Shown here: piece after piece, positions 3,671 to 41,127 of the stretch | Numbering within the stretch: position 1 is the first letter of the stretch | Layout: each line of letters begins with the position of its first letter | From: a phage | Assembly: GCA_036930585.1 (NCBI GenBank) | Contig: GCA_036930585.1_3066.1 | DNA: 64,000 nucleotides | Reading direction: 5' to 3' (one strand) | Made by a program: the position numbers and the translations under genes | Notes under the pieces: model-generated | What the model saw: the letters and a program-made list of their open reading frames with translations, nothing else | The model's database searches: none | Told to the model about the DNA's origin: nothing

Positions 3671-4871
3671 ATTTTGTAATAATGTCAAACTGTTCTTTAA
3701 AGCAGAAGCTTGAATCTTGATGCTGATACAAAAATTCATATGCTTTTTCTCGCTCACGGTCATAAAGAGCTCGGTCAGATGACAGTTCTTTAATACGCTC
3801 GAATGTTGATTCCATGTCATTTTCATCAAACCAAATGATACCGCTATCATGCGAGGTCAAAGGAGTATTATCAACACGGAATTTTAAATTTTCGCCAGTA
3901 GATTTCCAAAATACCGGAATTGTTCCACATGCACCAAGCTCGAGATGAGTATATTCTAAAGAGCGCTGTAGATATTTTTTATCCAACTTACTCAACTGAT
4001 AACCAAAACCGGATTTACTCATACGTTCAAGCATTTCGCTATTTACATAACGGTCAAGAATTTGCGTTGGCAAATTAGGAGCAATTTTAATTTGGTCTAC
4101 TTGATGAAGACGATAATACTCGTATGGAATTCCTTTTTCTTTAATAGGAATGAACGCTGGAGAACGTTCCAGACCTTCCATAATAGTACTTAGTCCTGCA
4201 GGTTTAAGATGTTTTTCGTGAAAATCAAACATCTGATAAAAACCTTTCCATGTAGTCGTACGACCAATCCAACGGTTGATATTCATATTAATTTCAGAAA
4301 CATCTTTCCAGTAGGTTGACCGAACCTTCGCAATATCCATAGGAGGCTGAAAGTTATATACGGTCGGTGCTTCTTCAATATCATCAAACAGAGAAACAGT
4401 TTCTGGATACCATTCTTTCATCAGAACTTTATTAAAATCACCATTATCAGAATGACTAAAAATAACATCAGCTCGACGAACAGTTTCTTCTAATCCCAAA
4501 TTTCGACGCAAAGAAAGAGAAGAATGGTCATGTTGATAAACTACAACACGAACAGAAGGTTTAATGTTATCAATAATTTTTTTATAGTTATTAATAGTGT
4601 CTTCTTCAACCGAAGTAGCAGGAACTGAATTGATAATTAGAATATCACAATCATTTACCAGCTTAAGTGTTTTATCGTATTCTTTTGCCAATAAAACCGG
4701 AATTGAAAATGATTTATAATCATGCGCGCAATTACGAGTAAATGATTTATCTTTAGCATAAACCAAAGTCACTTCATGACCATTTTTAATAAACCAATCA
4801 CGTTGCTCGAGTGAGAATTTTGTTACACCACAACCTTCAAGACCTCGAGCCATAAAAATACATGCTTTCAT
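3669..4871 (-). CDS. a-gt: DNA alpha-glucosyltransferase
   Basis: 400 aa; near-identical to T4 a-gt by recall. Confidence 0.95.
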   Translation of the reverse strand: MKACIFMARGLEGCGVTKFSLEQRDWFIKNGHEVTLVYAKDKSFTRNCAHDYKSFSIPVLLAKEYDKTLKLVNDCDILIINSVPATSVEEDTINNYKKIIDNIKPSVRVVVYQHDHSSLSLRRNLGLEETVRRADVIFSHSDNGDFNKVLMKEWYPETVSLFDDIEEAPTVYNFQPPMDIAKVRSTYWKDVSEINMNINRWIGRTTTWKGFYQMFDFHEKHLKPAGLSTIMEGLERSPAFIPIKEKGIPYEYYRLHQVDQIKIAPNLPTQILDRYVNSEMLERMSKSGFGYQLSKLDKKYLQRSLEYTHLELGACGTIPVFWKSTGENLKFRVDNTPLTSHDSGIIWFDENDMESTFERIKELSSDRALYDREREKAYEFLYQHQDSSFCFKEQFDIITK

Positions 4872-36098: not shown

Positions 36099-36449
36099 TT
36101 AATATTCTTTTAAAGCATCAATCTGTTCACGGCGTTTACGCCATAAATTAATTACTTCATAAGCGGATTCAGCATTTCGAATTGGTCGGCATTTATATAA
36201 AGACTTGCGATTTTGATATTGTGTAGATAACGGAATTTTATCTAAAAGGTCTTTACGTTCAAAGTATTCGTAACCATCTAAGCCAAATGAACGATTTTTG
36301 AGAAATTGCCAATGACCAAATTCGTTTTGAATATAAATATAATCCGCGTGTTGATAAAGTAAATTAATTTCACGAAATGAGATATGTTTTTCATATTCAT
36401 TGAAGTAAAATGTTAAATCATGAACTACTAAATAAACATTACCTTTCAT
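36099..36449 (-). CDS. hypothetical protein
   Basis: 116-aa ORF with GAGG SD, 18 nt downstream of tRNA-Arg. Confidence 0.55.
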   Translation of the reverse strand: MKGNVYLVVHDLTFYFNEYEKHISFREINLLYQHADYIYIQNEFGHWQFLKNRSFGLDGYEYFERKDLLDKIPLSTQYQNRKSLYKCRPIRNAESAYEVINLWRKRREQIDALKEY

Positions 36450-36467: not shown

Positions 36468-36543
36468 TGGTCGAGGCAGTAGGGATCGAACCTACGACCC
36501 AGGACTTAGAAGGTCCTTGCTCTTCCTTCTGAGCTATGCCTCG
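36468..36543 (-). tRNA. tRNA-Arg (anticodon TCT)
   Basis: hand-folded cloverleaf, T-loop GGTTCGATCC, encoded CCA. Confidence 0.85.
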
Positions 36544-36547
36544 TAAT

Positions 36548-36623
36548 TGGGGTGACCGATGGGAGTCGAACCCATGACTACGAGAATCACAATCTCGAGT
36601 TCTACCAACTAAACTACGGCCAC
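36548..36623 (-). tRNA. tRNA-His (anticodon GTG)
   Basis: hand-folded; acceptor 7 bp; no encoded G-1. Confidence 0.7.
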
Positions 36624-36737
36624 ATTAATACCTACTCCAACAATCAAGATGTCTTCACACGAAATTAAGAGAAGAGTGATCAGTTCAACCCCGATAATCG
36701 CGTCAAGTAGATATTAATGTGACAATTGTCACAAATT

Positions 36738-36812
36738 TGGCGGACGTGATAGGATTCGAACCTATAACCAATCGCTTAACAGGCGATCGCTCTGCCATTG
36801 AGCTACACATCC
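36738..36812 (-). tRNA. tRNA-Asn (anticodon GTT)
   Basis: hand-folded; T-loop GGTTCGAATCC. Confidence 0.8.
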
Positions 36813-36816
36813 AAAT

Positions 36817-36903
36817 TGGTGGGGAGTGATGGAGTCGAACCACCCGAGTCGCAATGACAATGGATTTACAGTCCACACCGCTACCTCTACGGGATAACTC
36901 CCC
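36817..36903 (-). tRNA. tRNA-Tyr (anticodon GTA), long variable arm
   Basis: hand-folded; 87 nt. Confidence 0.75.
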
Positions 36904-36916
36904 TTAATTCTTAATT

Positions 36917-36991
36917 TGGTGGCCCTGGGTGGAATTGAACCACCATCTGGCGATTATGAGTCGCTTGCTTGAACCTTCCAGCTACAGGGCC
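36917..36991 (-). tRNA. tRNA with CAT anticodon (Ile2/AUA-reading or elongator Met)
   Basis: hand-folded; G1-C72 paired so not initiator. Confidence 0.75.
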
Positions 36992-36992
36992 T

Positions 36993-37068
36993 TGGTGCTG
37001 ATTGACGGAATCGAACCGCCGACCTTCTCATTACAAGTGAGTTGCTCTACCTACTGAGCTAAATCAGC
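36993..37068 (-). tRNA. tRNA-Thr (anticodon TGT)
   Basis: hand-folded. Confidence 0.85.
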
Positions 37069-37073
37069 AAAAC

Positions 37074-37163
37074 TGGCGGAGGCGATAGGATTTGAACCTA
37101 TGAGTCGCCGGAGCGACTGCCGGTTTTCAAGACCGGTGCATTAAACCACTCTGCCACACCTCC
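37074..37163 (-). tRNA. tRNA-Ser (anticodon TGA), long variable arm
   Basis: hand-folded; 90 nt. Confidence 0.8.
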
Positions 37164-37165
37164 AG

Positions 37166-37239
37166 TCTCCATACAAGGATTTGAACCTTGGACCTCCTGA
37201 TCCCAAATCAGGCGCTCTACCAAACTGAGCTACACGGAG
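37166..37239 (-). tRNA. tRNA-Pro (anticodon TGG), CCA not encoded
   Basis: hand-folded; 2-nt spacer to tRNA-Ser. Confidence 0.8.
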
Positions 37240-37249
37240 TAAATTAAAT

Positions 37250-37323
<74 letters not shown>

Positions 37324-37328
37324 AAATT

Positions 37329-37415
37329 TGGTGCGAGAAGTGGGACTCGAACCCACAAGGAAATCATTCCGCAGCATTTTAAGTGCTGTGCCTTTACCAA
37401 TTTGGCCATTCTCGC
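37329..37415 (-). tRNA. tRNA-Leu (anticodon TAA), long variable arm
   Basis: hand-folded; 87 nt. Confidence 0.8.
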
Positions 37416-37421
37416 GTTATA

Positions 37422-38030
37422 TTATTTATTACGTGAAAAAGACTGTTCTATCAATTCTGGACACTTTCGTTCTATCCATTTTCTAGCTTTTTGTGGGCTT
37501 ATACCTATTATTTTAGCAGCTTTACTAACCCATCCAAATTTAGAATAATCGATTTTAACTAATTCTTCGTAAATTTCATCAGTTAAAATCTTTTCATTAA
37601 TATTTACCAGTAAATGATATAATTTGTTATCATTAGCAATTTTAATGAATCTTTTATAGTTTCCGCCTTTACTTAAACCTAATGAAGTAATTGCAGATGA
37701 TATAGTAGCCGAATTTAATAATGCGTTTAAAATTTCTTCATCACTAACATTATAACGCTTTTTATTATTTTTAATATTTTTACCAGCAAAAGTATCAGTT
37801 TGCGAATGACAGTTTGGACATAATAATCTTAAATTTGATTTAAGATGATTTTTGTTATTTCCATCAATATGGTCTAATTGCAGAACAATATGCTTATTTT
37901 GCCATTTTGAAATTTTACAAATTGCACACTCATATGGAAAAATATTTTCTTTTATTATTTTGTCTTTCAGCTTTCCTGTACTAAAATTTGGATGTTTTCC
38001 TTCAAAAATTTCAGCTAATTTAGTATCCAT
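37422..38030 (-). CDS. HNH homing endonuclease (Mob-like)
   Basis: HNH motif HIDGNNKNHLKSNLRLLCPNCH; start set at internal ATG (track start is TTG). Confidence 0.85.
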   Translation of the reverse strand: MDTKLAEIFEGKHPNFSTGKLKDKIIKENIFPYECAICKISKWQNKHIVLQLDHIDGNNKNHLKSNLRLLCPNCHSQTDTFAGKNIKNNKKRYNVSDEEILNALLNSATISSAITSLGLSKGGNYKRFIKIANDNKLYHLLVNINEKILTDEIYEELVKIDYSKFGWVSKAAKIIGISPQKARKWIERKCPELIEQSFSRNK

Positions 38031-38140
38031 AATATGATTCCCAATTATTAACAAAGGCTCTCAAATAAGAACCCTTGATGATAGAGGGTATTAATCAGTG
38101 CGATATGAGTTAATAATAACAAATAATTCTTAAAGCATAT

Positions 38141-38431
38141 TTACCATTTATAATAATAATACATATTTACGATGCATTCAAGACCCAAAGGATTCTTGAA
38201 AATATCATATTCAAGAGGACCTTTTTCTGTTTCAATAAAGAAATCAAAATTTACTGTATTAAATTTACGTTCTTCCTTCACTAATTTAACTTGAGAAGAT
38301 GAACGGTCAATGTAAACCTTTTCAACTTCAAAACATGTTAAAATGCCATAATCATCAATCAAAGCTTTAGCCGCGTCTTGATCATATTTATATCCATTTT
38401 CAATGGATGATACTTTCGCATAAAGAATCAT
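38141..38431 (-). CDS. hypothetical protein
   Basis: 96-aa ORF. Confidence 0.5.
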   Translation of the reverse strand: MILYAKVSSIENGYKYDQDAAKALIDDYGILTCFEVEKVYIDRSSSQVKLVKEERKFNTVNFDFFIETEKGPLEYDIFKNPLGLECIVNMYYYYKW

Positions 38432-38433
38432 TA

Positions 38434-38832
38434 TCAGCCTTCATCAACAATAGTGTGAGTATTAGCATTTACGATTTGCCACCAATCAAAGCGATTAGAA
38501 TCCATCGGTTTGTTTTCATTTTCTTTGATAATGTCACGGAGTTCATCTTCAGAGAATGCTTTAGCGATTAAATCGGTATACCCACCACGTGGATAATAAT
38601 TATCACCTGCAAACAAAAGGAAATTTACCTTCCCGGAAGGAACATACGCTTCCTTAGGATACTTGTTTCCTGCGTGGTCAACCACTTCAATATAACGGTA
38701 AGGAATATCGGTTCTTTCAACCCATTGCCATGCCGCTGCAGGGGAATCGAAAGCATCTACACCTAAACGATTATCTTCATCTTTAGACGGATTATTTTCG
38801 TAATCCGCATATACATAATATTCAACGTTCAT
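38434..38832 (-). CDS. hypothetical protein
   Basis: 132-aa ORF. Confidence 0.5.
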   Translation of the reverse strand: MNVEYYVYADYENNPSKDEDNRLGVDAFDSPAAAWQWVERTDIPYRYIEVVDHAGNKYPKEAYVPSGKVNFLLFAGDNYYPRGGYTDLIAKAFSEDELRDIIKENENKPMDSNRFDWWQIVNANTHTIVDEG

Positions 38833-39017
38833 TATTCACCTTTAGAAATTTTATCCATAACAATAGCAATTAAACCAATTAAAAATGCTACTACAAGTGA
38901 AAACACATTTTCTGCTGTAGTCAATAATCCACATATAAATCCAACAAACATTGAAAAACTAAAAGCGGAAGCAGAAATTGCAATAGCAACATTTCGAATT
39001 AATTCACAACGTTTCAT
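38832..39017 (-). CDS. small membrane protein (2 TM)
   Basis: 61 aa, hydrophobic. Confidence 0.5.
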   Translation of the reverse strand: MKRCELIRNVAIAISASAFSFSMFVGFICGLLTTAENVFSLVVAFLIGLIAIVMDKISKGE

Positions 39018-39045
39018 TTTATTCTCCTCAGTAGTAGATAGGGTA

Positions 39046-39075
39046 ATAGTATCACTACCCTATCTAAAAGTAAAC
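39046..39075 (-). promoter_or_regulatory. early-type promoter: GTTTAC, 18 bp, TACTAT
   Basis: motif read on minus strand. Confidence 0.6.
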
Positions 39076-39309
39076 TTATTTTTTACGAAAAATTGATTTA
39101 TTTTCTGCTGCCCATTTTTCAATAACTGCAGCAGGACCAGTAACAACAATTTTATCACCGTAATCTTCTGCGGCGAGTTGACCGAAATTATCTAATGCAT
39201 CACGAAGAACTCCATGAGGCATTTCACCCATTTTATCTTTCTTGCCAGTGTAAATAAACTCAACTTTTACATCAGCAGTTTCAGCAATAAATTCTTGGTA
39301 AGTTTTCAT
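39076..39309 (-). CDS. ipI: internal protein I-like (capsid-targeted small protein)
   Basis: N-terminal MKTYQEFIAE capsid targeting sequence; next to 57B as in T4. Confidence 0.6.
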   Translation of the reverse strand: MKTYQEFIAETADVKVEFIYTGKKDKMGEMPHGVLRDALDNFGQLAAEDYGDKIVVTGPAAVIEKWAAENKSIFRKK

Positions 39310-39343
39310 TTTGATTTCCATTTGGTTTTGTTTTGATAGGGTA

Positions 39344-39373
39344 ATAGTATCACAACTAAAACCCTATGTAAAC
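39344..39373 (-). promoter_or_regulatory. early-type promoter: GTTTAC, 18 bp, TACTAT
   Basis: upstream of the ipI-like gene. Confidence 0.6.
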
Positions 39374-39385
39374 AACTTTGTGAAA

Positions 39386-39643
39386 TTATTTTAAATCTTC
39401 TAATCGTTTCTTCATCTTAGAACCATTTTTAGCAATTTCTCCTGCATCGGAGCATAATGCTAAAAGTGCTTTAACTTTAGTTTGGTCTCCTTTAAAAGAT
39501 GAAGGATCGACCGCAGCAGCAAGTTCTTTAATACGAGAGAAAAGACGCTCAGCTTCAGCTAAAGCCATTCCAAGCTTTACTTCCATACCGTGGGAAGATT
39601 CAGTGATAGTAGTTTTTGTAGCAAACTCTTTGAAAGTTTTCAT
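39386..39643 (-). CDS. internal-protein-like small protein (degenerate targeting sequence MKTFKEFA)
   Basis: 85-aa ORF with own promoter. Confidence 0.5.
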   Translation of the reverse strand: MKTFKEFATKTTITESSHGMEVKLGMALAEAERLFSRIKELAAAVDPSSFKGDQTKVKALLALCSDAGEIAKNGSKMKKRLEDLK

Positions 39644-39674
39644 TTTTATTTTCCTAATTAATTTTGATGAGGTA

Positions 39675-39704
39675 ATAGTATCACTACCTCATCAGTATGT
39701 AAAC
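39675..39704 (-). promoter_or_regulatory. early-type promoter: GTTTAC, 18 bp, TACTAT
   Basis: motif read on minus strand. Confidence 0.6.
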
Positions 39705-39716
39705 AACTTTGTGAAA

Positions 39717-40401
<685 letters not shown>

Positions 40402-40402
<1 letters not shown>

Positions 40403-41127
40403 TATAGTACCTTTAGTGTATTTTTAATTTTAGAAAAAAGTTCTTCAAGAGAACCATCGTTTGTAATTACTAAATCGCCATCACGAATTGGCAATCCAGC
40501 TTCTGTAATATGTGTATCATTGGATTTTTGACCAGGACGAACTACATGAATTACTGTAGCACCCATCGCCCTAGCCGCATCCATTTCATGATCTTGACGG
40601 GTATCAGGAACGATATAATAATCATAACCTGAGTTAAATTTATCAAGATAATCTAAAGCAAATAATTTTACCCAGTACATGCGGTCGAAGTTATTAACAA
40701 TCAAATCCGTACCTAGGGCTTGCATCAGACGACGGACTGACCATTGATCTTCAATATTATTTATAACGTCAATAATCTTGTTAAATGCTACGGAATTAAC
40801 TGATTCTTGTCCTTCGTCATCAAAAACAAACACACCTTTAATTGGGCTTTTACCATTAAGATAGCAAAATGCTTGTTCCATAATCGTGATTACTTCTAAT
40901 TTAGTTAGATTTAAATTAGTCTCACGATCATAGTCAATTCCTTCAAACTCTTTACGAGTTAAGCAAGGATAGTCGGTATTTGCTGCAAATACTCCCCATG
41001 CATAAGCCAATGCATCCTTAATAGGACCAGCAAGTTGGTATTTAACTGCAGAATAATTGCTCATGATAAAATCAGCAGTAGTATCTTTTCCACTACGCTT
41101 TACACCGCTTAAAAAGATTAGTTTCAT
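40402..41127 (-). CDS. 1: deoxynucleoside monophosphate kinase gp1
   Basis: 241 aa; P-loop GVKRSGKDT; matches T4 gp1 by recall. Confidence 0.92.

Follow-up and report, generated by a model that had tools for sequence, protein, structure and literature searches.

The described systems closest to the locus analysed here are endonuclease genes of the phages T5 and T4. F-TflIV of T5 is a site-specific endonuclease according to the account of Akulenko 2004 that is given in PMC2330249, and its gene, T5p073, is named hegA or H-N-H endonuclease TflIV in AY543070 and in records of phage BF23. SegB of T4 cuts tRNA genes of the endonuclease-less phage T2L, and the segB gene is thereby preferentially inherited while the tRNA markers of the recipient are lost; tRNA processing has been proposed to limit its expression (PMC2330249). 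MobE of T4 targets nrdB and not tRNA genes (PMC2988022). In the classification of His-Me finger nucleases, the Mob proteins and F-TflIV are both placed in the broad group 1, and I-HmuI, with PF05551/PF13392, in group 2 (PMC5714182).

The stretch of DNA analysed in full, hereafter "the window", is 64 kb long and derives from a Tequatrovirus (T4-like coliphage). It carries an HNH endonuclease ORF next to its tRNA array, which we interpret, with a probability of about 0.7, as a free-standing homing endonuclease gene of an F-TflIV-like clade of zinc HNH proteins, residing in place of tRNA-Gln(UUG) at the head of the tRNA operon. A 3.5-kb stretch around the ORF matches 1150 phage records, with 97.8% identity in the case of phage ACG-C40. 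Public records already label the gene "HNH endonuclease" and "similar to T5 TflIV"; it is an uncharacterised member of a well-known kind. An earlier description based on the letters alone (the sequence-only reading) had reported a 200-aa ORF with an HNH signature ending 7 bp from tRNA-Leu. The signature, HIDGNNKNHLKSNLRLLCPNCH, is indeed present at residues 54-75 of the translation, but the protein has 202 aa. Likewise, the ORF does abut tRNA-Leu, but across a spacer of 6 nt, 7 being the difference of the coordinates (Table 1). The GC content of the gene (25.9%) is lower than that of the window (34.9%), and an open frame of 609 nt within DNA of 26% GC argues that the ORF is more than a product of chance. 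A search with the family profile found no paralogue of the protein in the 64-kb window or in T4 1-50 kb.

Table 1. Features of the HNH locus in window coordinates.
Feature	Position	Strand	Basis or detail
HNH endonuclease ORF, 202 aa + stop	37422..38030	minus	ATG 38030, TAA 37424-37422
Spacer between stop codon and tRNA-Leu, TATAAC, 6 nt	37416..37421	minus	junction comparison
tRNA-Leu(UAA), directly 3' of the ORF, now first in the array	37329..37415	minus	tRNA call; Rfam tRNA 64 bits
tRNA array Leu-Gly-Pro-Ser-Thr-Met(Ile2)-Tyr-Asn-His-Arg, without tRNA-Gln	36468..37415	minus	tRNA calls, Rfam
Inserted cassette, ~620 nt (5 nt + ORF + 6 nt), in place of tRNA-Gln nt 8-73	37417..38036		junction comparison
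Leftover tRNA-Gln 5' acceptor strand, first 7 nt, TGGGAAT	38037..38043	minus	read from sequence
Leader hairpin, conserved, 11 bp, just upstream of the ORF	38052..38077	minus	RNA folding, sequence comparison
Candidate MotA-dependent middle promoter, TGCTTTA, 12 nt, TATTAT	38113..38137	minus	read by eye from sequence
HNH beta-beta-alpha-metal nuclease core, ~residues 30-90, CxxC...CxxC zinc ligands, H54/N66/H75	37761..37943	minus	
C-terminal helix-turn-helix-like DNA-binding module (predicted), ~residues 160-195	37446..37553	minus	weak Pfam hits, model

The boundaries of the insertion, which the sequence-only reading had proposed to define against relatives lacking the ORF, were obtained from eight phages with the HNH gene (among them the window phage, ACG-C40, HY03, Ozark, teqhad, phiD1 and PD112) and seven without it (G29, T4, T2, RB51, PST, teqdroes and UGKSEcP2). 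In all seven HNH-less phages tRNA-Gln(UUG) fills the 74 nt that adjoin tRNA-Leu on its 5' side. The distance from the end of tRNA-Leu to the upstream anchor is accordingly 74 nt in these phages and 628 nt in the carriers, and the cassette junctions are identical in 8/8 carriers. What is left of tRNA-Gln are its extreme ends. At the 5' side the remnant listed in Table 1 is extended to 9 nt in teqhad (TGGGAATTA), and at the 3' side 1-3 nt persist (C at 37416 in the window, AGC in phiD1). Neither tRNA calls nor Rfam found a tRNA-Gln elsewhere in the 64-kb window; at the locus itself Rfam matched known tRNAs only, with no match to a tRNA-Gln remnant and no intron. The gene lies outside any intron or intein, as the cassette is little more than the ORF alone between the operon leader and tRNA-Leu. 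The suspected connection with an altered tRNA content hence takes a precise form, namely an almost base-for-base swap of tRNA-Gln(UUG) for the cassette. The locus is a very clean example of a mobile element swapped in for a tRNA, and our literature search found no description of a replacement of tRNA-Gln by an HNH gene.

The cassette explains why one subset of Tequatrovirus has ten tRNAs instead of eleven, and the identical set of ten is annotated in ACG-C40, Ozark and teqhad. The price is that the phage no longer has its own tRNA for CAA codons; in the genes neighbouring the cassette the ratio CAA:CAG is 20:2.

Several other features of the array and its surroundings vary between phages or annotations. 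ARAGORN calls a tRNA-Met(cat) at 36917-36991 (minus strand), for which RefSeq relatives annotate tRNA-Ile2(CAT), a tRNA that decodes Ile once its anticodon has been modified, as in T4. A gap of 114 nt separates tRNA-His and tRNA-Asn (36624-36737). Directly after tRNA-Arg follows a 116-aa, RB69ORF150c-like ORF (36099-36449, minus strand), which is present in the window, ACG-C40, G29, RB51, T2 and teqdroes, and unannotated at that position in Ozark, teqhad and T4. A SegB-like ORF of 609 nt occupies the place of tRNA-Pro in RB51 (L011, 5267-5875) and teqdroes (L014, 5267-5875), and T2 (L012, 5220-5621) has an ORF of 402 nt (T2_137) at the tRNA-Thr site of other phages. Upstream of the cassette, alleles of trna.3 (window 38434-38832, minus strand) are 71%, 78%, 87% or 99.7% identical to that of the window among phages that are otherwise 95-99% identical, and T2 is without trna.3.

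The protein is matched end to end by PHROG 14736 ("HNH endonuclease", E=5e-124), and a database search recovered 5527 homologues. Forty of these were aligned; the residues C35, C38, H54, N66, C71, C74 and H75 are invariant among them, and the N-terminus of the ORF lines up with those of its closest orthologues. We interpret this conserved Cys/His/Asn set as a zinc-stabilised HNH core: the catalytic His/Asn/His residues lie on a beta-beta-alpha-metal fold, as in His-Me finger group 1, and the two CxxC pairs provide for a structural zinc, as in the McrA-like subclass. The AlphaFold model (pLDDT 89.5) has a beta-hairpin and a helix around the motif residues, followed by two helical modules, and its helices are predicted with confidence. 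The first of these modules spans residues ~95-135; the second overlaps weak Pfam matches to HTH_29, HTH_17 and Cro at residues 164-192, and an orthologue (P0023) has HTH Pfam domains. The model thereby suggests an N-terminal HNH nuclease combined with two helical DNA-binding modules. Structural matches to HNH domains are modest (Z <=5.5; Foldseek E >0.2), and a sequence search of solved structures gave no significant match. The Pfam HNH model (PF01844) scores the single sequence below its gathering threshold (17.3 vs 21.4 bits). Since two orthologues of 58% identity (P0003 and P0004) do have precomputed PF01844 matches, the low score is a matter of model sensitivity and not of a missing domain. 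A GIY-YIG domain, as in the Seg family, is absent among the Pfam and PHROG matches.

Among named proteins, T5 hegA/F-TflIV comes nearest to the window protein: BLASTP aligns the two over 170 aa at 35% identity (E=9e-22), and the family profile matches F-TflIV at E=1.8e-33. The label "Mob-type", which the sequence-only reading had attached to the gene, does not hold in this comparison. Membership in the T4 Mob family (MobA-E) would fit a free-standing gene with an HNH motif in a T-even genome, and Mob proteins and F-TflIV share His-Me finger group 1 (PMC5714182). However, the family profile (40 homologues; hmmsearch, filters off) gave E=0.05 for MobE, 0.11 for MobC, 0.33 for MobB and 0.63 for MobD, the comparison being confined to MobB-E as T4 has only a 37-aa fragment of MobA. 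The profile likewise yielded no significant match to I-TevIII or EndoVII (E >=0.05), and BLASTP against MobB-E, I-TevIII and EndoVII returned nothing significant. The Mob motif itself is also different, with an N-terminal HHIIPR...NLV.LT..EH and no CxxC zinc pairs. We consider a Mob affiliation highly improbable and retain the assignment to the F-TflIV-like clade.

The distribution of the gene points to mobility. The HNH gene (>=95% identity) is carried by 64 phage records as compared to approximately 446 with an intact tRNA-Leu/tRNA-Gln/leader junction, both being counts of records and not of genomes in a collection that includes GenBank/RefSeq duplicates; carriers make up ~12% of the related records. 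Universal presence at the site had been named beforehand as the observation that would speak against a mobile ORF, and the empty-site alleles are in fact the majority. The polymorphism concerns presence or absence at a single locus with precise and identical boundaries. Among carriers the HNH gene is 98.4-100% identical, while neighbouring genes across the carrier backgrounds are 71-99% identical. In particular, trna.2, trna.3, 57B, 57A and gp1 of the window are 99-100% identical to those of the HNH-less phage G29 and 87-98.7% identical to those of HY03 and Ozark, whose HNH genes are nevertheless 100% identical to that of the window. The gene also marks a boundary of ancestry. The upstream region 38044-41127 (trna.2 to gp1) is nearly identical to G29, with 18 differences in the ~3 kb upstream of the cassette, whereas downstream of the gene tRNA-Pro (37171-37212) is the ACG-C40/T4 allele and not the G29 allele. 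Furthermore, the HNH gene co-occurs with tRNA clusters of the T4/segB type (HY03, PD112) as well as of the T2/T6 type (window, Ozark, teqhad), and is found both with and without trna.1. The history of the gene is discordant with that of the flanking DNA, in which SNPs are shuffled to within 11-23 nt of the cassette, as horizontal spread between genomes would produce. Identical junctions, near-identical copies in mosaic flanks and a low GC content together bear out the mobile insertion that was originally suspected.

A long co-conversion haplotype shared by the flanks of HNH carriers was considered and rejected: the flanks are shuffled except at two positions, 38062-38063, which read CA in 8/8 carriers and in 2/7 non-carriers.

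Mosaic flanks alone are no proof of endonuclease-driven spread, since T-even phages recombine very frequently. The gene could instead be a decayed or inactive passenger, whose old insertion destroyed tRNA-Gln and which now spreads by ordinary homologous recombination without any drive. Frequent general recombination predicts flanking markers near linkage equilibrium with the cassette, and flanking SNPs are indeed shuffled among carriers as near as 11-23 nt from it. In addition, the T4 HNH genes mobA and I-TevIII are annotated as defective, and the ribosome-binding site of the present gene is weak. Against decay, the ORF is intact and of equal length in 7/7 other phage copies compared. The copies differ from that of the window by 20 synonymous and 4 non-synonymous changes, and none is disrupted, which indicates purifying selection. 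Even distant homologues all retain the catalytic and zinc residues, and the presence/absence polymorphism recurs in two other genera. That the copies are 98.4-100% identical although their genomic backgrounds have diverged much further suggests a recent sweep. A passenger without drive is in our view unlikely, and the HNH gene most likely encodes a homing endonuclease that is active or was so until recently.

It is slightly less probable still that the nuclease is domesticated, with mobility as a secondary trait, and serves to exclude rivals by cuts in their tRNA region, to rearrange or amplify the tRNA cluster in the manner of SegB, or to act on host DNA. There is a precedent in SegB (a GIY-YIG enzyme at the same locus in T4 and T6), which cuts within tRNA genes and promotes the amplification of anti-defence tRNAs (PMC2330249, PMC13096335). 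The several swaps of endonuclease for tRNA in the cluster and the position of the window HNH gene at a boundary between differently related flanks would be in line with such a role. But presence in only ~12% of related records, at the cost of one tRNA gene, is more in keeping with a selfish element, and a nuclease that excludes a rival by cutting its allele carries out the same molecular event as homing.

The presence/absence polymorphism of the HNH gene is repeated by its orthologues in two further T4-like genera. In a Klebsiella Marfavirus-like contig (L015) an orthologue of 68% identity begins 14 nt after tRNA-Gln and takes the place of the next tRNA seen in the HNH-less phages PWKp18 and P545. 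In Roskildevirus-like contigs (L016, L017) orthologues of 58% identity replace a segment of 222 nt, which holds tRNA-Gln in Erwinia phage Cronus. The site is thus repeatedly one in a tRNA array where relatives have a tRNA, in the window, in L015, L016 and L017, and also in T5 as compared to S131. The recurrent position at tRNA-Gln could partly reflect conserved synteny, because the cluster begins with tRNA-Gln in each of the three genera. Close to the HNH gene, Cronus and L016 differ in a further tRNA: tRNA-His of Cronus (L020, 2127-2202) is precisely missing from the related HNH-carrying contig L016, which has 7 nt instead (4823-4831).

A more far-reaching reading, which we regard as tentative and somewhat doubtful, is that this HNH lineage is a specialist for tRNA-Gln genes that recognises their conserved DNA, thereby crosses between T4-like genera (Tequatrovirus, Marfavirus-like, Roskildevirus-like) and overwrites a tRNA gene each time. 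If this were true, homing endonucleases such as this lineage, and SegB, SegB-like genes and F-TflIV at other tRNAs, would be a main force that sets the tRNA content of phages. Their selfish spread would be traded against what phage tRNAs contribute to translation or to anti-defence; phage tRNAs are known to act against host defences that cleave tRNAs (PMC13096335). In that case, escape from the HNH enzyme could account for the hypervariable anticodon stem of phage tRNA-Gln.

All five base pairs of this stem (5/5) differ between the T4/T2/PST-type and the G29/RB51-type alleles of tRNA-Gln, and the stem differs again in Marfavirus phages (loci compared: T4, L004 3958-4031; G29, L002 2863-2936; L019 4204-4277; L015 3911-3986). 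The changes are always compensatory and the remaining tRNA is nearly invariant. The variation may have allowed the tRNA or its gene to evade a nuclease, which could be an anticodon nuclease of the host or a homing endonuclease.

Signals for the expression of the gene are found in the operon leader and in the remnant of tRNA-Gln. A TGCTTTA-12 nt-TATTAT sequence, identical in T4, lies directly after the stop codon of trna.2 and is a candidate MotA-type middle promoter by what we take to be its likeness to the published T4 middle-promoter consensus. A scan for sigma-70 promoters at the locus did not rise above the shuffled background, and a terminator scan at the locus found none. The leader hairpin, which in HNH-less phages sits just upstream of tRNA-Gln, is polymorphic between phages in its loop and upper stem (38062-38066). 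Despite this local 11-bp hairpin the overall folding z-score of the leader is -0.7; in the RNA model the start codon is unpaired, and pairing near GGGA occurs only in a low-frequency MFE structure and not in the centroid. The only Shine-Dalgarno-like sequence is this GGGA, at -12 to -9 relative to the ATG, and it comes from the tRNA-Gln leftover. The ORF would be transcribed together with the tRNA operon, likely by read-through from trna.2-4 and possibly from the MotA-type middle promoter, and would be translated from a weak ribosome-binding site made of the leftover tRNA-Gln 5' end. By analogy to SegB, RNase P would process the 5' end of tRNA-Leu and so leave an mRNA that ends 6 nt past the stop codon, and expression would be low. 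SegB and the F-Tfl genes of T5 have been proposed to be under comparable control (PMC2330249).

For the window gene we infer endonuclease activity on a target and homing, with super-Mendelian inheritance. In a mixed infection, the enzyme would nick or cut the allele that still has tRNA-Gln, to which a genome carrying the HNH gene would be immune as it lacks the tRNA-Gln sequence. Recombination-dependent repair would then copy the cassette from the HNH-carrying genome, and tRNA-Gln would be overwritten. The population pattern expected from such repair-driven copying is observed. The target of the enzyme is probably the tRNA-Gln allele, which is favoured by the exact replacement, the resulting self-immunity and the fact that the gene is associated with tRNA-Gln in three genera. 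A target elsewhere is conceivable, though, as the cleavage sites of free-standing T4 endonucleases are often hundreds of bp away from the endonuclease gene (PMC2988022). With a concrete candidate target in the tRNA-Gln gene, and with near-isogenic phages that have or lack the HNH gene, such as the window phage and G29, the locus offers a natural system for HNH-driven intronless homing in T-even phages. It is also a further indication that phage tRNA clusters are remodelled by endonuclease genes. In genome annotation and in phage-therapy genomics, the gene can be regarded as benign and as belonging to a well-understood class.

Compared to the known systems, the window gene resembles T4 MobA-E in being free-standing, intergenic and sporadic in T-even phages. 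I-HmuI-type modular phage HNH enzymes nick one strand. The protein proposed here would share their architecture of an N-terminal HNH domain followed by helical and helix-turn-helix modules reading a long asymmetric site; I-HmuI is intron-encoded, however, and is absent among the structural matches of the HNH model. The correspondence to SegB is one of location, of lifestyle and, probably, of tRNA genes as targets. The T4 record agrees with the earlier statement of a segB gene in the T4 tRNA region. SegB is likewise encoded by a free-standing homing endonuclease gene in the same tRNA cluster and abuts a tRNA (tRNA-Arg). It is, however, a GIY-YIG and not an HNH enzyme, and its site is between tRNA-Ile and tRNA-Arg. 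The two genes can also coexist: the window is without segB, and HY03 and PD112 carry both. F-TflIV differs from the window protein in its occurrence in phages of another family (T5 and BF23, Demerecviridae), in its length of 227 aa with an additional LuxR-like helix-turn-helix domain at the N-terminus, which the window protein lacks, and in swapping out a different tRNA; at 35% identity its target specificity cannot be transferred to the window protein. F-TflIV is the described system to which the window protein is significantly similar, and both combine a zinc-type HNH core with DNA-binding parts of the helix-turn-helix type. F-TflIV is likewise sporadic, hegA being found in only 23 T5-like records, and its gene immediately follows tRNA genes within the tRNA cluster of T5, where hegA (L005, 2791-3474) occupies a site at which the hegA-less phage S131 (L024, 732-1001) has a 189-nt ORF and tRNA-Leu(TAA).
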